64,000 nucleotides of DNA from NCBI GenBank assembly GCA_965200495.1, contig CBDAUG010000001.1, positions 1,191,406 to 1,255,405 of the forward strand. The letters are read 5' to 3'. Positions within the stretch are counted from its first letter, which is position 1. The number at the start of each line of letters is the position of its first letter. The notes under the pieces were generated by a model. That model saw nothing but the letters and a program-made list of their open reading frames with translations. It was not told where the DNA came from and did no database searches. Position numbers and translations under genes: made by a program. This DNA comes from Alphaproteobacteria bacterium (GTDB taxonomy: Bacteria > Pseudomonadota > Alphaproteobacteria > SP197). Below are positions 2,589 to 23,425 of this stretch, in pieces.

Positions 2589-3260
2589 CGGGACATGTCC
2601 TCGGCAAGGGGGAGTCCGGCCGCCATCCCGGTCAGCCGGTGCCGGCGGCGCGCGTGATGTTCTGAAGGCGGACACGAGGACATTGCCGTCAGAACTCTGC
2701 ATTCATGATGTGGCCGAGCGTGGTGCGGTCTGCTCCCTGCTGCACGCCCTGCCCGCGGAACCCGGGGATTGGCGACGCGTCGGCCGCTGGCGGCAGCGTC
2801 ATGCGTTCTCCCGTCTCAGCCCGTTGTTGCCTTCGGTGGCCGTTCTCATCTTTTCTCCGTATCCGTGTGCGAGGCCGGGATGACGTGGCGGTTCGTCGTT
2901 GGTTTCGATGGTTGTGCTCTCAAGTAAAACACCCTTATGTCATTGAGATTAAAACCTTAAGTAAAAAGACGGTTTTCTGTCCTGCAAAGGGCCGCCGGAT
3001 GACGGCGGCGGGTCGTTTGTGGGCGACTGTGTAGCAACCACCGTGCTTCTGCACAAATCCCGCTTCTCGCTGCGCGGACCGGCGTCGACGCCTGCGGACC
3101 GGAAGATGACCTGCAACCGTCATCGTCGTTGTTGCGCGAGGTGATCAGCGGACTGGCGGGCCGCCCTTCAAACGGTTGTTCGAAAGCGCCGGGGCCTGTG
3201 CCATGGTAGGAGCAGCATTGCGGCAAGACCCTCCCACTGGAACAGGATCCGGATCGAACA

Positions 3261-4448
3261 ATGCGCCAGCCCCTTCGGCGCAGGCCGTCCATGCTGGTTC
3301 TGGTGATGATCGCGTCGATCGGTCCCCTGGCGCTGCAGGTCCTGGTCCCTGCGATGCCAGGCCTCGCCAGCGACTTCGACACGGATTTTTCCGTCACCCA
3401 GTTGTCTCTTTCGGTGTACCTGATCGGCATTGTGGCGGGGCAACTCGTCTATGGTCCGTTCTCCGACCGCTTTGGCCGCCGTCCGGTGCTCATCACCGGG
3501 CTCGTGGTCTATATCGGTGGCACGCTCTTTTGCCTGGTGGCCTGGAACATCGAGGCGCTCATCATCGGCCGGGCGTTGCAGGCCCTGGGCGGCAGCGCAG
3601 GGATCGTGCTGGCGCGTGCCATCATCAGGGACATGCATGATCGCGAGGGATCGGCGCAGATGCTGGCCTACGTGACGGCCGGCATGATTGTCGCGCCGAT
3701 GGTCGGCGCCATCGCCGGTGGCTACCTCTACGAGTGGTATGGCTGGCAGTCGGTCATGATTCTGGCGCTCACCATCGGTCTTCTCGTGACCGGAGTGTGC
3801 ATCGTCGTTCTGAGCGAAACCAACACGAAGCGCACATCCCGGACCTCGTTTCGGGACATGGTGAGGGATTGCGCGCGCCTCCTCGGCAAGCGGCTGTTCC
3901 TCGGCTACGCCCTGCAGGTCTCCTTCACCACGGCGACGTTCTTCACCTTCCTGGGAGGCGCATCGGCCGTGGCGGTGACCATCTACGAGCGCAGTCCGTC
4001 CGAGTACGCTCTCTGGTTCATGCTGGTGTCAGGCAGCTATATGACCGGCAATTTCATCTCCGGGCGGATCAGCCGCCGGATCGGCATCGACCGCATGATC
4101 ACCATCGGAACGACAGTCTCCTCCTTGGCCGCTCTCGTCATGGTGGCCCTTTTTCTCTTCGGCTGGTTCGGGCTGGTTCATTTCTTCGTGCTGGCAGGGG
4201 TGATGTCCCTGGGCAACGGTTTCAGCATGCCCAACGGCTTCGCCGGCATCGTCAGCGTGGAGCCTGGCCGCGCCGGGACGGCATCGGGTCTCTCCGGCGC
4301 CCTGCAGATGGGTCTGGGCGCCATCGCCATGACCGTTGTCGGCCACACCCTGACGGACAGCGCAATGCCGGTGATTGTCATCATGCTGATCCTTGCGTTT
4401 CTGGCGCTGATCGCCCATGTGCATGGCACAGGAGGAGACGCACCTTGA
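3261..4448 (+). CDS. MFS transporter, Bcr/CflA-like drug efflux family
   Basis: 395 aa with about 12 predicted TM helices. The N-terminal motif GPLALQVLVPAMPGLASDF...GPFSDRFGRRPV matches the MFS signature (D-R/K-x-G-R-R/K). The alternative start at 3291 (MLVLV) cannot be excluded. Confidence 0.75.
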   Translation: MRQPLRRRPSMLVLVMIASIGPLALQVLVPAMPGLASDFDTDFSVTQLSLSVYLIGIVAGQLVYGPFSDRFGRRPVLITGLVVYIGGTLFCLVAWNIEALIIGRALQALGGSAGIVLARAIIRDMHDREGSAQMLAYVTAGMIVAPMVGAIAGGYLYEWYGWQSVMILALTIGLLVTGVCIVVLSETNTKRTSRTSFRDMVRDCARLLGKRLFLGYALQVSFTTATFFTFLGGASAVAVTIYERSPSEYALWFMLVSGSYMTGNFISGRISRRIGIDRMITIGTTVSSLAALVMVALFLFGWFGLVHFFVLAGVMSLGNGFSMPNGFAGIVSVEPGRAGTASGLSGALQMGLGAIAMTVVGHTLTDSAMPVIVIMLILAFLALIAHVHGTGGDAP

Positions 4449-4477
4449 TGATCATGCCGAACCGGGAGATGCAGCGT

Positions 4478-5448
4478 TGAAAGCCTTGCTGTGCCGAGCG
4501 TGGGGTGGACCTGAAGATCTTGTCGTGGATGATGTGGCGGACCCTGAGCCCGGCCCCGGTGACATTGTCGTCCGCGTCGAAGGCTGCGGCGTGAATTTCG
4601 CCGATACCCTCATCATCCAGGGTGCCTACCAGGTGAAGCCCGAACACCCGTTCACGCCGGGCATGGAAGTGGCCGGCACGGTCCTGAAGACCGGGTCAGG
4701 GGTGGACAACGTCAAGCCCGGCGATGCGGTCATCGCCATGCCCGGTGTCGGTGGTTTCGCCGAGCAGGTGGTGTGCAAGGCTTCTCAGGCGATGCGGCGT
4801 CCCGCCGGCATCGATGCTGTGACAGCCGCCGCCATTCCCATCGCCTATGGTACGGCTCACATCGGCCTCGAGGTGCGGGGCAGGCTTCAACCGGGCGAGA
4901 GTCTCCTCGTGCACGGAGCGTCGGGTGGTGTCGGCCTTGCTGCAGTCGAGGTCGGCAAGGCCATGGGCGCCCTCGTCATTGCCACGGCGAGCAGCGCCGA
5001 CAGGCTGGAGACGGCACGCCGTCACGGTGCGGATCACGTCATCAACTATGGTGACGGCGAATTCCGTGGCGAGGTCAAGGAGATCACCAAGGGTGGCGCC
5101 GACGTCATCTTCGATCCCGTCGGTGGTGACGTCTTCGACCAGTCATTGCGCTGCATTGCCTGGGAAGGACGTCTGCTCACCATCGGATTTGCCTCGGGCC
5201 GCATCCCCCAGGCGCCGGCCAACATCCTGCTGGTCAAGAACATCTCCGTCGTCGGCGTTCACTGGTCCAACTATCGTGAAAGCCGGCCCGCACTCCTCGA
5301 ACGCTCCTTCGGGCAGATCTTCACATGGATGTCCGAAGGCGCACTGCGCCCGCTGGTCTCGAGAACCTTTACCCTCAAGGAGGCGCCGCAAGCCCTTGCC
5401 GATCTCGCCGGACGCCGGGCCCGCGGCAAGATCGTGGTCATTCCCTGA
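4478..5448 (+). CDS. NADPH:quinone oxidoreductase / zinc-type alcohol dehydrogenase superfamily (Qor-like)
   Basis: ORF 4417..5448. Qor-like N-terminus (L)KALLCRAWGGPEDLVV...GDIVVRVEGCGVNFAD and nucleotide-binding GASGGVGLAAVE. I chose the TTG at 4478 as start because it gives MKALLCRAWGG typical of the family, a GGGAGA RBS precedes it, and it avoids overlap with the upstream MFS gene. The ATG at 4417 is the alternative. Confidence 0.7.
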
Positions 5449-7856: not shown

Positions 7857-8645
7857 GTGTCGCCGTGCATGGGTGAGCGAGCCATGCGAGCCCATGCCGG
7901 GCGGTATGCCGGAACTCCGGCACAGGACCTGGCTTTTCCGGGTCATGTCGGGGCGTGCGGCAGCGTGACGGGCGCCGACCCGAAACCCGGACGCCCGGTA
8001 TGCGTGTGGGATCGCCCGACGCGGGTGTTTCACTGGGTTCTCGTCGTGCTTTTCGTCGTTTGCTATGTCAGCGGCGACCGTGGCAGGTTCGACATTCACA
8101 TCATGGCAGGAGAGGCCCTGCTGATCCTTGTCGTGGCGCGGATCATCTGGGGGTTCGTGGGCAGCGACACTGCCCGGTTTCGGCACTTCCTGCGCCCCCC
8201 GGGCGAGATCATGGCCCATGTGCGGTCCCTTGGTGAGCGACGGCCCGGCCACGAGGTCGGTCACAATCCCCTGGGAGGGCTTTCCGTTGTCCTGATGCTG
8301 TTCCTTCTCGTCATCCACACGGGTTCCGGGCTCCTTGCGGTGGATGTCGACGGATGGAACGAAGGACCGCTGTCGCATCTCGTGAGTTACGAAGCAGCGC
8401 GCAGTGCCTCGGCTGTTCACGCCATCACGGTTGACATGCTGCTCGTGCTGGTCGCCCTCCACGTGGCGGCTGTCGGATTTCACTGGCTCTACAGGCGCGA
8501 CAACCTCATCGGTCCCATGGTGACGGGCCGCAAGCGCCTTCCTCCGCAACGTGAGGCTCCGCGTCTCGTCGCGGACATCCGTGCCCTTGCCGCCCTTGCC
8601 ATTGCCGCTGCAGTGGTGTGCGCAGTGCTGTCGCTTGCCGGGTAG
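7857..8645 (+). CDS. Cytochrome b561 family (Ni/Fe-hydrogenase-type b cytochrome, CybB/YodB-like)
   Basis: VWDRPTRVFHWVLVVLFVVCYVSGD is the canonical start of the cytochrome b561 bacterial family. Four TM helices with conserved His residues are present. The start is uncertain: ATG at 7857, ATG at 7884, or the GTG near 7966. Confidence 0.7.
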   Translation: MSPCMGERAMRAHAGRYAGTPAQDLAFPGHVGACGSVTGADPKPGRPVCVWDRPTRVFHWVLVVLFVVCYVSGDRGRFDIHIMAGEALLILVVARIIWGFVGSDTARFRHFLRPPGEIMAHVRSLGERRPGHEVGHNPLGGLSVVLMLFLLVIHTGSGLLAVDVDGWNEGPLSHLVSYEAARSASAVHAITVDMLLVLVALHVAAVGFHWLYRRDNLIGPMVTGRKRLPPQREAPRLVADIRALAALAIAAAVVCAVLSLAG

Positions 8646-8648
8646 TGT

Positions 8649-9122
8649 TCAGTGGTCCTCGGCGCGGAAGACCGCATGACAGCCGCCGCACCCGTCGCGC
8701 CCAAGGGCCATGAAGGCCTCGGTCTGCGAGTCGCCATCTCCCGACGCCAGCGCCGTCTCGAGCATGGTCGCCCGCTCTCCCAGGAGTTGTGATGCCATCT
8801 CGAAGTCGGACCAGTTTTCCCAGATGGCATCGAGAGCGCCGGTTCGGGGCAGGGCGTCGACGCCGGTCCCCGGGGGAAAGAGCGATGGAATGGCGGCAGC
8901 TGCGTCCTTCAGGGCGCCGGTTGCCGCCAGAGCCTCCCCGGCACTGTTGCGGCCGGAGAGGAAACTCTTGATGGTCCGCATGGCTATTCCTATCTCTTTC
9001 ATGACCACGTGGCGCTCCTGGCCCAGCCTTTCGGCGTCCTCGAGGCTGACGATGTCGTCGCCCGACCAGGCCGCGGATCCCAGCACCACAGAAACAATCA
9101 CCGTCAGGATGGACTTACGCAT
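8649..9122 (-). CDS. Cytochrome c' (class II c-type cytochrome)
   Basis: ORF 8649..9170(-), start moved to the ATG at 9122, which has a GGAGGA RBS 8 nt upstream. It has a signal peptide (MRKSILTVIVSVVLGSAAWSG). The single CXXCH heme site (CGGCH) lies near the C-terminus, as in cytochrome c'/c556. Confidence 0.8.
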   Translation of the reverse strand: MRKSILTVIVSVVLGSAAWSGDDIVSLEDAERLGQERHVVMKEIGIAMRTIKSFLSGRNSAGEALAATGALKDAAAAIPSLFPPGTGVDALPRTGALDAIWENWSDFEMASQLLGERATMLETALASGDGDSQTEAFMALGRDGCGGCHAVFRAEDH

Positions 9123-9398
9123 GGCCGGTCCTCCACTTCTCAAGATGTGCAAGAGACTGAAACAGGTCATGTGGAGCCCGCAAGCCCCCGGCGCCGCTGT
9201 GAACGCAATCCGGCTGCCAGGGATCCGTCACGGAGCCTTGCGCAAGGGATCGCAACGAAGCCCGGACTTGACCCGGCATCACGATTGCGTAAATCGTGAG
9301 GCCTGCCCGGGTCACGGTGACATGGACCAGGCGGCCGATACGGTCCCGTGTCATGGGTCACGACAACCGGCTTTTTTTCAGGGCGGGGAGGTGCAGCA

Positions 9399-10844
9399 AT
9401 GAGCAGGGGCACCACTGTCTTTGCCCTTATTGTCTCCGTGCTGCTCATCGCTGTAGCCGGTGTGCTCAACATGCTGGCAAGGCAGAGCGGGGAAGCCGTC
9501 CTCGCCGATGCGGTGACGATGGCAACGGAGATTCGCGACGGCGTACGGGAAGCGGGAGTACCCGCTGTCAACGGAGTCCTGGAGACGGCATCACGCTTGC
9601 GGGCGACCCTTGATGCCGTTTCGGATCCTCAAGAAGACCTTGCCGGCAAGGTTGATGCATTGCGGGAGCGGCTGCAGCGGAGAGAGCGTGCAGCCGAAGC
9701 CCTCGGCGATGCTGATTCGTCGCTTTCCGAGGCGATCGATGTCTGGAAATCGGCGGTTGCCAGAGCCGGGAAGGGGGCATCGGACCTGGCCGGACTCGTG
9801 GAGGGCATGGACCGGTATCTCGCCGGAACCGGCCCTGCCCCGAGCCTTGAATCTGTCCGTTCCCACGGTGATGTGGCGCTTGTTGCGGCAGCAAACAGTC
9901 TGGTGAGCGAAAAGCGCGCTCTGGATGCGCTGCTCGAGGGGCTGGCTGCCAACAGGGTGACCGGTGCAGCCGAGCAACTCGTCATGTCCCTGGAGATCGA
10001 GCGCGGCCGCCGGGCGCTTGTCGCCCGCAACTATGATGATGCGACGGTTGCCGCCTTTGGTGCTCTGGCGCTGGTCTGGGTTCTGCTTGGCATCCGCGGG
10101 CGACGCCCCGGTGAGCCGGCGCAACACAAAGCCGATCCCGTCAGGGGAACACTGCTGATCCGCGGAACGGCGGCAGCGGTGGCGATGCGGGCGCAACGTC
10201 TCGCCGCGCACACCAATGCGCTGAGAGAGACCCGCCAGAGACTTGGAAACGCCATCGTCGAGGCCGGGCTGGACCGGTCGCTCAACGATGATGCTTCCCT
10301 TCACCTGGAAGTGGAAAACCTGGACGGTCATCTCGCCTGCCTGCGCGATGAAACCGGCGAACTGTCGTCTCTGGGCAAGCGCCTGTGGACTCTTGCCGGG
10401 GGGGCAGCGCAGGCGTCGACAGCCAGTATCAACGCGTGCATCAGGGAAGCGCTCGAGGCGATCAGGGCAGGCCACCGGATTCCTGTCATGACGGAACTTG
10501 CCGATGTCGGTGATGTCAGAGGTGTGGCATCCGACATCGTGCTGGCCCTGACGGCCCTGATCGAACGTGTCCTCACGGCGTCGCGGGAAGCAGGAATGGA
10601 CCACAGCGCCATTCGCGTCTTCAGCGCGGCCAGTGATGACCGGGTGCATGTCACGATCACCGGAGGCGCTCCCCTTCCACAGTTCACGGAGCGTACGTTC
10701 AGGCCGTACGGCGCCTCTCACGAGCTGGCACTGGCTATCGCTCTCCTCAGACGTCATGGCGGCAGCGTGATCCTGGGTTCGTCCATCGCCGGGGAGGCCT
10801 CGGCGCGCATATCCCTTGTCGCCGCATCGGGAGATCAGACATGA
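9399..10844 (+). CDS. Membrane-anchored sensor-histidine-kinase-like protein with degenerate (probably inactive) HATPase domain
   Basis: ORF 9348..10844, start at the ATG at 9399, preceded by a GGGGAGG RBS. Topology is TM1 (aa 5-25), a roughly 190 aa extracytoplasmic coiled-coil-rich region, TM2 (about aa 215-235), and a cytoplasmic region with a DHp-like helix (AAHTNALRETRQRL). The CA-like domain has an N-box LTALIERVLT (Asn lost), a G1 box TITGGAP (Asp lost) and a G2 box ASHELALAIA (degenerate). Its stop overlaps the next gene's start (ATGA at 10841-10844). Confidence 0.6.
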   Translation: MSRGTTVFALIVSVLLIAVAGVLNMLARQSGEAVLADAVTMATEIRDGVREAGVPAVNGVLETASRLRATLDAVSDPQEDLAGKVDALRERLQRRERAAEALGDADSSLSEAIDVWKSAVARAGKGASDLAGLVEGMDRYLAGTGPAPSLESVRSHGDVALVAAANSLVSEKRALDALLEGLAANRVTGAAEQLVMSLEIERGRRALVARNYDDATVAAFGALALVWVLLGIRGRRPGEPAQHKADPVRGTLLIRGTAAAVAMRAQRLAAHTNALRETRQRLGNAIVEAGLDRSLNDDASLHLEVENLDGHLACLRDETGELSSLGKRLWTLAGGAAQASTASINACIREALEAIRAGHRIPVMTELADVGDVRGVASDIVLALTALIERVLTASREAGMDHSAIRVFSAASDDRVHVTITGGAPLPQFTERTFRPYGASHELALAIALLRRHGGSVILGSSIAGEASARISLVAASGDQT

Positions 10845-12832
10845 AGGCGCTGCGCTTTCGGGTTCGCAACTATCGCAACATCGAGGACAGCGGCTGGGTA
10901 CCACTCGATCCGGTCACGGTCCTTGTCGGACGCAACGAGTCGGGAAAGACCTCCCTGCTGAAGGCGCTCAACAAGTTCAATCCGGGAACGGCGGAAACCT
11001 TTGACGCTCAGCGCGAATTTCCGCGTGACCGCTATACGCGCGACTATGTCCTTGCCGGTTCCACGGGCGCGGAGTGGCCTGTCTGTTCCATCGAGTTCGA
11101 GATTCCCGACCAGCAGAAACGCGATATCGCAACCCTGCTGGGTCCGGACCGGGCGGTGCCCGAGAAGGTCACCGTCACGCGCCACTACGACGGCTCTCTC
11201 GCATTTTCCTACATGCCTCAGATCGGGGCCAAACCGGCAGGGCCGGATCCTCTCATGGGGGCTCTCGAGGATCTGGCGCTTTCTGACGATTCGCCGCGCC
11301 TGGCTGCATGGGCCAGCGCGTGGCACGATCGGTTGAGCAAGATTGATGACGTCACAAGCGCTGCCGGCCGTGCCGCTCTGGCCGAAATCGACGCAGAGAT
11401 TTCCGGCCTCGGTGATGAACGGCTCGGCGCTCTCGGTGCGATCGTCGCCGCCATGCTGCGGATGCCCTTCGCAAGCAGGGTGATCGATCACGTCAACGCC
11501 CTGGTGGAACGCGAGCTGCCGCGGCTCGTCTACTTCGAGAACTATGGCGTTCTCGACAGTGCCATCTGGCTGCCGGAGATGTTGCGGGGCCTTGAACGCG
11601 AGGAACCGGAACCGCGGTTCCGAACCGCCCTTGCGCTCTTTCGTCATGCGGGCCTTGATCCGCGGGACATCGCGGAACTCGCCTCCCCGGGCAACACGGC
11701 GCCGGGCGAAGACATGCAACGCAAGATGGAGGAGCGGGCCATCCGTCTCAATGCCGCGTCGGTCGACATCAGCCGTCGCTGCAGCGCGTTGTGGTCGCAG
11801 AGGCGCCATCGCATCCGGTATCACGTCGACGGAGATTACTTTCGCATCAGGGTTGCTGACGATTCGCTGGAGGACGTGGAGATCGAGCTGGAATCCCGCG
11901 GCAAGGGTTTCCAGTGGTTCCTCTCGTTTTTCCTCGTCTTTGCCGCGGAGTCGGAGGGCGCCATGGGCGACGCCATCATCCTGCTGGACGAACCCGGCCT
12001 CAGCCTTCACCCGACGGCACAACGTGAACTGCTGGCGTTCTTCGAGCGTTTGTCCGCCGAAAACCAGGTCATCTACACAACGCATTCACCGTTTCTTGTC
12101 GACGGTGATCATCTCGAGCGGGTGCGTCCGGTGTTCGAGGAGGACAACGGGCGTGCCCGCATCCTCAAGGGTTCATGGCCCGCCCATCCCGAAACGGTGT
12201 TCGCGCTCAAGGCGGCTGCCGGATATGCGATGTTCGATTCCCTTGCGCAACGTGGTCGGGCGCTGCTTGTCGAACAGGTCAGCGACGCCTGTTACCTCGA
12301 GGCGCTGTCGCGGCACTGTGGCAGAACGGGGAGGAGCGCGCTGGACGATTCCGTCGACGTGGTGCCCTGTGGCGGTGCGGCGGTGTGCGGTTATCTGGCA
12401 TCCCTCCTCATGGCCGAGCACCGGCGTCCGCTGATCCTCTTCGACGGCACGGACGCCGGGCGCCTGCGGCGGCATGGACTGGTGAAGGGCCTCCTCGACG
12501 AGGGAGACAGTTCGATTGTTCTCCTCGACGAAGCTCTCGGCTGGTCCGGACATGATATGTGCCTCGAGGATCTCTTCGGCGAGAGCATCATCCTCGAGTG
12601 TCTCGGCACTGCGACCGGGATCAGGCTGTCGCTTGCCCATGACGCTGATCGGGCGAGCCTCGTCGGTCGCATCGAGAGCGCAGCAGCGACGGCAAACATT
12701 GCGCTTCCCCGATCCTGGCGGTTGGACACGGCCCTGACGGTGACGTTGTCGCAAGTGTCCCTGCCGGACGACGTCCTCGATTCGGCCTCGCTTCTCTTCA
12801 CGAAGCTTGCCGGTGACGACCAGGGACAATGA
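10841..12832 (+). CDS. OLD-family nuclease-like protein: N-terminal ABC-type (AAA_15/AAA_21) ATPase plus C-terminal Toprim-like domain
   Basis: 663 aa. Walker A GRNESGKTS at aa 30-38. An OLD/AAA_21-type Walker B/signature ILLDEPGLSLHP and an H-loop YTTHSP. The C-terminal about 200 aa has Toprim-like motifs (LLVEQVSD, VVPCGG, ILFDGTD, VLLDEA). Translationally coupled to the upstream gene. Confidence 0.65.
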   Translation: MKALRFRVRNYRNIEDSGWVPLDPVTVLVGRNESGKTSLLKALNKFNPGTAETFDAQREFPRDRYTRDYVLAGSTGAEWPVCSIEFEIPDQQKRDIATLLGPDRAVPEKVTVTRHYDGSLAFSYMPQIGAKPAGPDPLMGALEDLALSDDSPRLAAWASAWHDRLSKIDDVTSAAGRAALAEIDAEISGLGDERLGALGAIVAAMLRMPFASRVIDHVNALVERELPRLVYFENYGVLDSAIWLPEMLRGLEREEPEPRFRTALALFRHAGLDPRDIAELASPGNTAPGEDMQRKMEERAIRLNAASVDISRRCSALWSQRRHRIRYHVDGDYFRIRVADDSLEDVEIELESRGKGFQWFLSFFLVFAAESEGAMGDAIILLDEPGLSLHPTAQRELLAFFERLSAENQVIYTTHSPFLVDGDHLERVRPVFEEDNGRARILKGSWPAHPETVFALKAAAGYAMFDSLAQRGRALLVEQVSDACYLEALSRHCGRTGRSALDDSVDVVPCGGAAVCGYLASLLMAEHRRPLILFDGTDAGRLRRHGLVKGLLDEGDSSIVLLDEALGWSGHDMCLEDLFGESIILECLGTATGIRLSLAHDADRASLVGRIESAAATANIALPRSWRLDTALTVTLSQVSLPDDVLDSASLLFTKLAGDDQGQ

Positions 12833-13077
12833 ACGGCAGATTGATCCCATTCCAGGGTTTCGTCTCTGGAACCCGCCGCTGTTGGTGATGCCGACCGTCT
12901 TCTTCATCGCCAGACCCGTTGCCGATGTCGCGCACGGCACTGCGAGCACCCGGACATTGCCGGCATGGAGGCGGAGTTTGTCGATCGAACGATCCGTTGA
13001 TGCGGTTTGCATTGGCGCCGTGAAGTGGCTATAAGCAGCAATAGCAGGAAACTTCGTTTCATCAGAGGAAACAGACC

Positions 13078-22011: not shown

Positions 22012-22233
22012 ATGAAACAGGAACTCGATGTGCGGGGACTCGCCTGTCCCCTGCCCGTGCTCAAGGCGCGCAAGCGCCTCAAGGAGATGGCGAGCGGGGA
22101 GGTTCTCGTCGTTCATGCCACGGACCCTGGTTCGCAGAAGGATTTCGAGGCCTTCGCCGACACCACGGGTCATGCCCTGCTGGCCGCGGCGACGGATTCC
22201 GGCGTCTACACCTTCGAGATTCGACGCCGCTGA
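22012..22233 (+). CDS. TusA-like sulfurtransferase (SirA/YedF/YeeD family)
   Basis: 73 aa. The DVRGLACPLPVLKARKRL motif carries the conserved CPxP cysteine. It has the typical two-layer alpha/beta size. Confidence 0.75.
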   Translation: MKQELDVRGLACPLPVLKARKRLKEMASGEVLVVHATDPGSQKDFEAFADTTGHALLAAATDSGVYTFEIRRR

Positions 22234-22275
22234 TCCTTGTCTTGCGGATGGTCGCCTTGTGGTCCACACTGGCAC

Positions 22276-22368
22276 CAGTCACTCACGGGGAGCTCCTTGG
22301 GAGCTGAGAGATGCCGAGAGGCATCGACCCGTCGAACCTGATCCGGATCATGCCGGCGTAGGGATTGA
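22276..22368 (+). ncRNA. TPP (thiamine pyrophosphate) riboswitch, THI-box, in the 5' leader of thiB
   Basis: Conserved THI-element core: CACGGGGAGCTCCTTGGGAGCTGAGAG...GACCC...GAACCTGATCCGGATCATGCCGGCGTAGGGA (CTGAGA and the ACCTGATC(T/C)GGATAATGCCAGCGTAGGGA consensus). Downstream, CACCTCCCC can pair with the thiB SD GGAGG, which would be a translational expression platform. Confidence 0.8.
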
Positions 22369-22429
22369 GGAGACGGTCTTTCCCCCACCAGAAAGGCACC
22401 TCCCCGGCACCGGCGCCGAAGGAGGAACC

Positions 22430-23425
22430 ATGGCAAGAGTCTTGACCTTTCTGTCGGTTGCCTTGCTGACCATGCTGTCAGCGCGCGCCGAAACACTTGA
22501 TATCTACACCTACGAATCCTTTGTCAGCGAGTGGGGCCCGGGACCTGAGATCGAGGAGGCCTTCGAGGCGCGTTGCGCGTGCACCATCCGCTGGACGGCG
22601 GTCGATGACGCCGCAATCCTGTTGTCGAGACTGCGCCTCGAGGGATCAGGCGGCGAGGCGGATGTGGTGCTCGGGCTCGATACCAACCTGATGGCGGAAA
22701 CCCGCGATCTTGGCCTTGTGCGCCCGCACGGCCTTGCCGGCCTGGAGTTTGATCTTCCTGTTCCCTGGGATGATTCCGTCTTTGTTCCCTTCGATTACGG
22801 GTATTTCGCGGTGATCTACGATGATCAGGCGCTGCCTCGGCCACCGGCATCACTCGATGAACTGGTGTCGGGCGGCGACGGCGCCGATCTCATTATCCAG
22901 GATCCCCGTACCAGTACTCCGGGGCTGGGCCTCCTGCTGTGGATGAAGTCTGTCTACGGCGATTCTGCGGCTGACGCCTGGCGCAGGCTGTCGTCACGTG
23001 TTCTCACCGTGACCGCGGGCTGGAGCGAGGCCTACGGGCTGTTCCTGGAGGGCGAGGCGCCGATGGTGCTGAGCTATACAACCTCGCCTGCCTATCACCG
23101 GCTTGTCGAGGGCGAAACGCGTTACCGTGCCGCCATGTTCGAGGAAGGCCACTACATGCAGATCGAGGTGGCGGCCATGGTCGATGGCACGGACCAGGAA
23201 GACCTCGCCCGCGACTTTCTGAGCTTCATTGCGACGCCGGAGTTCCAGGGCGCCATTCCGACGGGCAACTGGATGTACCCGGTGATCGATCTCGGTGACG
23301 ATCTGCCGGACGTCTTCCGTGAACTGCCGGAGCCTGCCATGTCACTGCTGCTGGCGCCGGAAGAAGCCGGCGCCATGCGCCGACAGTGGACCGACGAGTG
23401 GCTGGAGGCGGCCATCGGAGAATGA
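22430..23425 (+). CDS. thiB: Thiamine ABC transporter substrate-binding protein
   Basis: ORF 22028..23425 trimmed to the ATG at 22430, which has a perfect AAGGAGGAACC RBS. Signal peptide MARVLTFLSVALLTMLSARA. Periplasmic binding protein fold of about 331 aa. Preceded by the TPP riboswitch and followed by thiP/thiQ. Confidence 0.85.
   Translation: MARVLTFLSVALLTMLSARAETLDIYTYESFVSEWGPGPEIEEAFEARCACTIRWTAVDDAAILLSRLRLEGSGGEADVVLGLDTNLMAETRDLGLVRPHGLAGLEFDLPVPWDDSVFVPFDYGYFAVIYDDQALPRPPASLDELVSGGDGADLIIQDPRTSTPGLGLLLWMKSVYGDSAADAWRRLSSRVLTVTAGWSEAYGLFLEGEAPMVLSYTTSPAYHRLVEGETRYRAAMFEEGHYMQIEVAAMVDGTDQEDLARDFLSFIATPEFQGAIPTGNWMYPVIDLGDDLPDVFRELPEPAMSLLLAPEEAGAMRRQWTDEWLEAAIGE

Follow-up and report, generated by a model that had tools for sequence, protein, structure and literature searches.

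The sensor gene and its reading frame

The 64,000-nucleotide stretch analysed here (the window), taken from contig CBDAUG010000001.1 of the alphaproteobacterial assembly GCA_965200495.1, carries at positions 9399–10844 of the plus strand the gene of a two-pass membrane sensor, whose stop codon overlaps the start of a gene for an OLD-like ABC ATPase. A preliminary description, made from the letters of the window, had seen in this sensor a histidine kinase fold with all the ATP-binding boxes mutated. We report here that the boxes are lost throughout an alphaproteobacterial clade, that the sensor is very probably a pseudokinase, and that it may serve the adjacent ATPase.

The longest open frame extends from 9348 to 10844 on the plus strand. 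The start was set at ATG 9399, since a GGGGAGG motif lies 5′ of this codon and the N-terminus MSRGT that it opens is common to all 24 homologues. The product, 481 aa and rich in Ala, Leu and Arg, has two hydrophobic segments, at residues ~7–27 and ~216–233, which bear out the arrangement of two transmembrane segments (TM1 and TM2) around a periplasmic domain that had been proposed; the four motifs singled out in the preliminary description were found at residues 269–280, 382–395, 418–425 and 439–450. The features of the sensor and of its partner are the following, dN/dS being the ratio of non-synonymous to synonymous substitution rates:

9385–9391, plus strand: ribosome-binding site GGGGAGG, 7 nt 5′ of ATG 9399 (sequence)
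9399–10844, plus strand: sensor gene, 481-aa histidine pseudokinase, degenerate member of the DAHL family (open reading frame, 24 close homologues, full-length homology to intact DAHL/HATPase_c sensors)
9417–9479, plus strand: TM1, residues ~7–27 (Kyte-Doolittle window means up to 2.67; aligns to TM1 of intact relatives; dN/dS 0–0.16)
9480–10043, plus strand: periplasmic all-helical domain, residues ~28–215, a shortened, divergent DAHL domain (clade-profile matches, BLASTP, hhalign, structural model)
10044–10097, plus strand: TM2, residues ~216–233 (Kyte-Doolittle 1.5–2.0; L225 and W227 invariant family-wide)
10140–10397, plus strand: DHp-like helical hairpin, helices 248–289 and 299–333 (AlphaFold2 model; Foldseek alignments of ~240 columns to kinase DHp+CA modules)
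10416–10826, plus strand: CA-like Bergerat-fold domain, residues ~340–476, lacking the N, G1, F and G2 box residues and with a shortened lid
10841–12832, plus strand: 663-aa OLD-like ABC ATPase, AAA_15/AAA_21 with a TOPRIM-like C-terminus (Pfam, NCBIfam, PADLOC; its ATG overlaps the sensor stop as ATGA)

A 437-aa antisense open reading frame, 9591–10904 on the minus strand, was also considered as a real gene and rejected, because the homologues, the fold and the dN/dS below 1 all belong to the plus frame; long antisense frames are common in DNA of 64% GC, and this one is most likely an artefact of that composition.

Fold and ancestry of the sensor

Direct sequence searches did not reveal a kinase. 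In Pfam and NCBIfam scans HATPase_c and HisKA were absent even at E ≤ 1, and the sole match was to DAHL (PF19443), far below threshold (10.7 bits, E 0.42, against a cut-off of 38 bits). Neither the sensor nor the clade profile matched a kinase among the PDB sequences; matches to Mpp10/U3 snoRNP entries (E 0.005–0.02) were short and unsupported, and were dismissed. A word-indexed search of 5.8 billion proteins returned 24 relatives only, 70–100% identical, all unnamed or hypothetical and none with a Pfam domain. The clade is alphaproteobacterial, and one cluster-mate bears the label Alphaproteobacteria bacterium. Since the sensor could not be recognised as a kinase in this way, homology was established through intermediates, using an alignment of the close clade homologues (A1) and one of nine intact members of the wider family (A3).

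An exhaustive HMMER search of 1.84 billion cluster representatives, with A1 as the query, gave 58 proteins, in which the clade profile matched DAHL+HATPase_c proteins with E-values from 1e-24 to 1e-4 (hmmsearch). Among the matches scanned, those from P0028 onward all had a strong Pfam DAHL domain and most also HATPase_c, and they aligned to either the C-terminal or the N-terminal half of the sensor. When the two alignments were compared by hhalign, the match had a probability of 99.8% and an E-value of 5e-29 over 480 columns, spanning TM1, periplasmic domain, TM2, hairpin and CA domain. The profile of the intact family, in turn, matched 48 solved histidine kinases by sequence (ZraS at 4e-19), whereas the clade profile matched 0. 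One full-length relative, P0025 (528 aa, E 3e-105), is the sole clade member that passes the Pfam HATPase_c threshold (43.7 bits). On this sequence evidence, the sensor has its origin in a family of DAHL/HATPase_c sensors that bind ATP.

As for the periplasmic domain, the clade profile matched the DAHL halves of all ten DAHL proteins tested, and BLASTP aligned the N-terminus of the sensor with that of the intact sensor of locus L011 at E 5e-13. The domain is thus, by these alignments, a DAHL homologue, shortened and divergent.

The fold is consistent with this ancestry. In the full-length AlphaFold2 model the periplasmic domain is all-helical and is followed by the hairpin (248–289/299–333), in which R328 and L329 do not vary anywhere in the sensor family, and by a C-terminal alpha/beta unit with the order beta-alpha-beta-beta-alpha-beta-beta-[disordered 424–439]-alpha-beta-beta. 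A Foldseek search of the PDB with this model placed histidine-kinase DHp+CA modules in all of the top 50 positions, with 209 matches at E ≤ 1e-3 and with HK853 (E 5e-8), WalK, EnvZ, DivL and AdeS among them. The sensor-kinase architecture with a Bergerat-fold CA domain, as it had been proposed, is therefore upheld both by the structure search and by the hhalign result, and the structure prediction, in which the Bergerat fold is present, leaves the original idea standing.

Loss of the ATP-binding boxes

The box positions were compared in 70 complete intact sensors, taken from 79 species-level loci and aligned with the degenerate clade. The column of the N-box Asn holds Asn in 65 of the 70, and Arg390 in the target, so that the replacement of this residue noted at the outset is correct; within the clade the column is R, G or A, with the exception of P0025, which has Asn. 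The DxGxG of the G1 box is found in 67 of the 70 intact relatives and in none of eight degenerate-clade sequences. In the target the "DN" of DNGxG is deleted and the box reads IT--GGAP: the Asp is indeed lost, as had been stated, not by substitution with Thr but by deletion. The two glycine columns of G1, filled in 69/70 and 70/70 intact relatives, are kept for the first (Gly422), while the second is Ala424. The F, P, F and Y of the F box are present in 65, 65, 65 and 55 of the 70, and the target reads F-R-P-Y-G. Finally, the G2 motif GxG[LIVMF] occurs in 66/70 intact relatives and again in 0/8 degenerate sequences, the whole "DGAMGxG" stretch having gone from the target through a deletion of ~6 residues, which accounts for the lost glycines of the preliminary description. 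The segment between G1 and G2, i.e., the region of the ATP lid, counts 31 residues in the target versus a median of 39 in the intact relatives. The claim that all the ATP-binding boxes are lost is therefore correct for the N, G1, F and G2 residues alike.

In the A1 alignment three degenerate boxes are invariant in 20 homologues, namely VASDIVLALTALIE, VHVTITGGAPLP and SHELA.A.ALL.RHG, and the reading frame is intact in all of them; intact boxes were found only in distant relatives (21–26% identity). To the same clade dN/dS was applied in pairwise form (Nei-Gojobori) among the window, L091, L092 and L001, whose dS values are 0.2–0.7:

TM1: 0–0.16
Periplasmic domain: 0.32–0.45 (the least constrained)
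Hairpin: 0.11–0.27
CA-like domain: 0.10–0.32
Full sensor gene: 0.22–0.35
Partner ATPase: 0.13–0.15

In most pairs no other soluble part is as constrained as the CA-like domain, the hairpin being slightly lower in two pairs that involve L001. Since close homologues share the degenerate boxes and these are under purifying selection, their loss is a mark of the clade and not the decay of one strain. The CA-like domain of the window compared with that of L002, of the P0025 lineage, gave 0.86; since the divergence of this pair is near saturation, we take the value to do no more than allow for a burst of change.

The more distant members show how the loss may have proceeded. P0025 is intermediate, with the Asn and the "DNG" kept and G2 lost; P0026 and P0027 have lost all the boxes, like the target. 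The partner ATPases of the P0025 and P0027 lineages are 68% and 63% identical to the window copy, respectively, and thus the more distant lineage is the more degenerate, which suggests that selection for ATP binding relaxed at the root of the clade and that erosion then went on in parallel. In P0027 (L006:8001-9197, 398 aa) we also observed that the periplasmic domain has about half its usual length, with the hairpin, the CA-like module and the ATPase partner kept. The part that cannot be dispensed with may thus be the cytoplasmic module.

The histidine of the hairpin

A His retained on a DHp-like helix had been noted in the preliminary description. The residue exists: His271 (codon 10209–10211) lies on the first hairpin helix. 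Its position, judged from column conservation and spacing only, is not conserved: P0022, with an otherwise identical locus, has Gln in this column, P0025 and P0026 have Arg and P0027 has Leu, while among the 70 intact relatives Arg (27), Ser (17) and Gly (9) prevail. Being variable both in the clade and outside it, His271 is to be regarded as derived and not as an ancestral phospho-acceptor, so that a retained DHp His cannot be maintained. In the intact family we found no conserved His between TM2 and the CA domain, the best column having His 29, Tyr 17 and Gln 8 times in 68 sequences, and no Pfam HisKA-type domain was detected in the target or in the intact relatives scanned. Classical His phosphotransfer may never have been the mode of action of the DAHL/HATPase_c sensor family.

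Having lost the N-box Asn, the Asp and glycines of G1, the F box, the glycines of G2 and a portion of the lid, and with no conserved His, the sensor is very probably unable to autophosphorylate or to pass on phosphate, as far as sequence and model can tell. The proposal of a scaffold without phosphotransfer is supported on the side of the ATP boxes; the role of scaffold is deduced. The strongest clue, absent from the preliminary description, is the OLD-like ATPase gene directly 3′ of the sensor, to which it is translationally coupled.

The candidate partner ATPase

The 663-aa protein encoded by the following gene matches Pfam AAA_15 (E 8e-26), and the OLD-like TOPRIM model just at E 0.06. Its best PDB sequence match is the class 1 OLD nuclease 6p74 (E 3e-10), and further matches in PADLOC and NCBIfam are to AriA, Old, GajA and PtuA models; homologues number thousands, many of them of ~700 aa with an OLD-like TOPRIM Pfam match. 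The Walker A (GRNESGKTS), signature (SRGKGFQW), Walker B (LLDEPG) and H-loop (TTHSP) motifs are intact in every copy compared. In the TOPRIM-like part the catalytic Glu is kept (LLVEQ), and the DGD reads DGT in the window (12434–12460, residues ~532–540).

We compared 11 sensor-linked ATPases (window, L002, L006, L011, L017, L020, L053, L065, L071, L093 and L094). The TOPRIM DxD, a metal motif with an established catalytic role, is non-canonical in all 11 (DGT, DGS, GGT, DGE, NSS, GGA, DVP, DLS), and canonical, LLDGD(D/E), in the eight unlinked homologues compared. Given the role of DxD in TOPRIM catalysis, the sensor-linked proteins would be competent as ATPases and probably are not nucleases.

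The sensor is followed by the ATPase, abutting or overlapping, in all 11 clade contexts (window, L001, L002–L005, L006, L091, L092, L093 and L094), over sensor identities of 39–100%. Two of these contexts are irregular: in L003 the ATPase (9589–11672) is split into two open reading frames of 296 and 388 aa, and in L092 (7618–9447) it is called 160 bp past the sensor stop, with a shorter product of 609 aa. These could be errors of assembly, or the ATPase could be on its way to being lost in some genomes.

ATPase homologues of ~49% identity were observed in two further loci resembling defence islands, one (L009:3535-7106) with DNA methylase, Schlafen-like and HATPase_c_3/4 genes, the other (L010:5001-7127) with an S8 peptidase, an AAA protein and a DEAD helicase. 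In L009 the ATPase overlaps (ATGA) an upstream gene for a 489-aa protein, which was compared with the sensor as a possible distant relative and found to be unrelated.

Genomic context in the clade

Upstream of the sensor lie two cytochrome genes and a conserved intergenic block:

7857–8645, plus strand: cytochrome b561 gene (Pfam Ni_hydr_CYTB, E 1.4e-24; the true start is probably 3′ of the GTG of the longest frame)
8649–9170, minus strand: cytochrome c′ gene, divergent (Pfam Cytochrom_C_2, E 1.8e-18)
9268–9297, plus strand: promoter-like block, TTGACC (9268–9273), 16 nt, TAAATC (9290–9295) (intergenic alignment of six genomes)

The two cytochrome genes occupy the same position in every clade locus apart from L094, which is a short contig, and it is possible that the cytochrome c′ acts as a periplasmic co-sensor. 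The promoter-like block, ~100 nt 5′ of the sensor, also contains an inverted repeat, ACGATT (9281–9286) and AATCGT (9292–9297), with a 5-nt spacer. Its columns CTTGACC...GATT.CG..AAT.GT are invariant across the six genomes, including the distant L002 and L006; a rule-based promoter scan did not call the block at 9268–9297. To judge from this conservation, the operon may have its promoter and operator here.

On the other side, a DUF1045 gene, of the 2H-phosphoesterase family, overlaps the ATPase stop in most clade genomes (L002:11670-12362; L091:9415-10107); it is truncated to 108 aa in L001 (11651–11977), and tblastn revealed no remnant of it at 12833–13077 of the window. The remaining neighbours are housekeeping genes (GCV_T, a methyltransferase, a split glutamate synthase), syntenic throughout, and thus the locus is not like a mobile island. 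In the clade loci with flanking sequence no gene for a receiver domain or response regulator was found within ~5–8 kb; this is a weak criterion, as orphan kinases exist.

Genomic context of the intact relatives

The loci of the intact sensors outside the clade, found with a profile of the intact subgroup, gave 76 evaluable species-level loci, from Alphaproteobacteria, Gammaproteobacteria and Ca. Binatia. Many relatives belong to MAG bins whose names point to sponge metagenomes as a possible source. In 75 of them a gene for a di-haem cytochrome c peroxidase (CCP; CCP_MauG) ends at the start of the sensor, with a median gap of 9 bp, as in L012 (9111–9998, then 10001–11806) and L011 (2208–3149, then 3146–4981); in L085–L087 there are two such cassettes per locus. 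This arrangement suggests that the CCP beside the intact sensor is a periplasmic haem co-sensor.

Moreover, Tad/Flp pilus genes (at least 40% identical) accompany the sensor in 40 of the loci with intact sensors, the sensor lying inside the pilus cluster, with T2SSF upstream and Peptidase_A24 and RcpC downstream (L011, L012–L036 and others). In L011 the order is CpaF, TadB, TadC, CCP, sensor, ATPase, prepilin peptidase, RcpC, and in L044, of Ca. Binatia, TadE-like and VWA genes lie 3′ of the sensor. An OLD-like ATPase stands directly 3′ of the intact sensor in L011, L052, L071 and L065, and after one dCache-like open reading frame in L017, L020 and L053. As the ATPases of these seven further loci are just 29–52% identical to that of the window, the link between sensor and ATPase recurs over a long evolutionary distance. 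In the literature collection that was searched, nothing relevant turned up on the DAHL domain or on the association of peroxidase, kinase and Tad genes.

Possible function and alternative explanations

We consider it reasonably probable that the gene product is a histidine pseudokinase acting as a membrane sensor or scaffold for the adjacent OLD-like ATPase. Since the cytoplasmic module is under purifying selection, it presumably works by conformation and binding, and not by catalysis. The partnership itself and the direction of signalling, which are read from the arrangement of the genes, we hold to be plausible at slightly under an even chance. In such a mechanism a periplasmic cue, perhaps read via the cytochrome c′, as the relatives appear to use the adjacent di-haem peroxidase, would pass through the hairpin and the CA-like module, which would recruit or gate the ATPase at the membrane; the ATPase would provide the sole nucleotide hydrolysis of the pair, and the DUF1045 protein would be the third operon member in most relatives.

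Several observations weigh against this interpretation. The alignments behind the AlphaFold2 models were shallow (19–20 close sequences), the full-length model has a predicted local distance difference test (pLDDT) score of 66.7, and when the CA domain was modelled separately just one of five models was confident (79.6 versus 46–61 for the others); on this point the sequence homology to intact sensors backs the fold independently. Binding of ATP by a non-canonical pocket of the sensor is compatible with its sequence. Outside the clade only seven of the 76 sensor loci have the ATPase, which is therefore not an obligate partner of the family; within it, the pair lies inside a larger syntenic block, so that its conservation counts as about one evolutionary observation. 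The sensor, finally, evolves far faster than the ATPase (identities of 70 versus 85%, 39 versus 68%, and 27 versus 52%).

A first alternative is that the sensor is a modulator similar to RetS, which would form heterodimers through its hairpin and tune an active paralogous kinase encoded elsewhere, its adjacency to the ATPase being incidental. In its favour, the hairpin and the CA-like module are the conserved parts; intact paralogues exist in related Alphaproteobacteria, with several copies in some genomes, and a degenerate (L006) and an intact (L011) copy come from one metagenome sample, on separate contigs. However, no intact paralogue was found in the 64-kb window or in the clade loci examined, and the overlap of start and stop codons with the ATPase, kept over 39–100% sensor identity, would be left unexplained. 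We regard this alternative as unlikely.

The pair could also belong to anti-phage defence, the sensor detecting a perturbation of envelope or pilus by phage and activating a nuclease of the OLD family. In fact, Tad pili serve as phage receptors and the intact relatives are found in Tad pilus loci, the best model matches of the ATPase (AriA, Old, GajA, PtuA) also fit this idea, and so do its ~49% identical homologues in contexts resembling defence islands. Nevertheless, the locus is a stable syntenic block across deep divergence and not a variable island, and the degenerate DxD of every sensor-linked ATPase argues against a nuclease; in PADLOC, moreover, the sensor matches nothing meaningful (E 0.007, to a model of unknown function) and the ATPase generic models only, so that a role in defence appears quite improbable.

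It is very improbable that the sensor is a membrane phosphotransferase of the ChpT type, in which His271 would relay phosphate and the CA-like domain would be a docking surface. His271 is located on helix 1, 119 residues before the N-box position, within the 104–120 residues that separate His and N box in classical kinases, but the variability of its column described above, the lack of a HisKA-type motif around it and of a receiver-domain gene nearby speak against such a relay. That the gene is a non-functional relic of a decaying kinase, as the loss of all the catalytic motifs, the shortened periplasmic domain, halved again in P0027, and the nominal dN/dS of 0.86 against L002, at a divergence near saturation, might be taken to mean, is hardly credible, with the frame intact in all homologues, the degenerate boxes invariant, a dN/dS of 0.10–0.32 for the CA-like domain within the clade, and the ribosome-binding site and promoter-like block conserved.

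Beyond the clade, the favoured interpretation of a pseudokinase serving the ATPase might be extended to the whole family: CCP-linked DAHL sensors and OLD-like ATPases would form an undescribed transmembrane signalling pair, with output to an ATPase with a dead TOPRIM and not, by phosphotransfer, to a response regulator, and with the kinase fold as a pure conformational coupler. An output of this kind would fit the lack of a conserved His in the family. We put this forward as a speculative proposal, more doubtful than probable; if true, the clade of the window would be a natural experiment in which the sensor's own ATP binding proved dispensable.

Relation to known systems

The closest relatives are the CCP-linked DAHL+HATPase_c sensors (PF19443 and PF02518; P0028–P0046, among them the 611-aa protein of L011:3146-4981), which are homologous to the target over the full length and some of which are likewise followed by an OLD-like ATPase. 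They differ in keeping the N, G1, F and G2 boxes, in their greater length (550–780 aa, with a longer linker), in the upstream CCP gene (75/76), and in the Tad genes that lie beside about half of them; the target clade has neither of these neighbours.

Pseudoenzymes are well charted among eukaryotic protein kinases, but of bacterial histidine pseudokinases, to our knowledge, just a handful have been described. In DivL of Caulobacter crescentus a Tyr replaces the His and there are multiple PAS domains; the protein acts on CckA through DivK~P and, unlike the target, lacks both a periplasmic DAHL domain and an OLD-like partner. RetS of Pseudomonas aeruginosa (PDB 6dk8) differs from the target in its 7TMR-DISM sensor and receivers and in its largely kept kinase-like motifs, and it targets another kinase, whereas the proposed client here is an ABC ATPase. 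ChpT (PDB 4fpp, 4qpj) is soluble and its phospho-accepting His is strictly conserved, unlike His271. DivL is a published histidine pseudokinase (PMC4211667; PDB 4q20), and so is PsmA of Streptomyces venezuelae, which lacks both the H-box His and the ATP motifs (PMC12963549). Like the target, PsmA has a conserved DHp+CA module without catalytic residues, and it acts by protein–protein interaction; unlike the target, it is a cytoplasmic PAS hybrid with a receiver, which binds DivIVA, and it has no sequence relationship to our protein, no periplasmic sensor and no ATPase partner. With DivL and PsmA established, the principle of the pseudokinase is already known, and the preliminary description of the pattern as unusual for such a sensor is valid in a relative sense only.

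The partner shares with the OLD family (class 1 OLD of Thermus scotoductus, 6p74; archaeal class 5 Cran1) the combination of an ABC ATPase and a TOPRIM-like domain. Cran1, an archaeal OLD ATPase in an operon with a membrane protein and with a role outside defence, keeps its active-site residues and cuts DNA (PMC12796447), and the same is reported for the class 1 OLD enzymes (PMC7049728). The sensor-linked ATPases differ from both in lacking the TOPRIM DxD.

The novelty lies in the sensor family itself, for which neither Pfam nor NCBIfam has a model; in the complete, stepwise loss of the ATP-binding boxes by a two-pass membrane sensor; in its coupling to an OLD-type ATPase whose TOPRIM is degenerate; and in its descent from a sensor cassette that is linked to CCP and often associated with Tad genes, undescribed as far as our literature search showed. 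The clade offers a clean case, with the full sensor architecture, a stepwise loss of the ATP elements with extant intermediates, strong purifying selection, and a conserved candidate client, the OLD-type ATPase, whose own nuclease metal site is gone. If the partnership is true, the kinase fold has been reused as a coupler between membrane and ATPase, and ATPases of the OLD family have a non-defence role in bacteria. As for the cassette of di-haem peroxidase and DAHL sensor in the Tad loci, it could be a periplasmic oxidant-sensing input to pilus control.

Another observation in the window

At 22276–22382 of the plus strand the window contains a thiamine pyrophosphate (TPP) riboswitch (Rfam RF00059, 79.7 bits), which lies inside the open frame 22028–23425. 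The Pfam match of this frame to solute-binding proteins begins only at residue ~174, and the real gene probably starts 3′ of the riboswitch and encodes an ordinary thiamine-regulated transporter.

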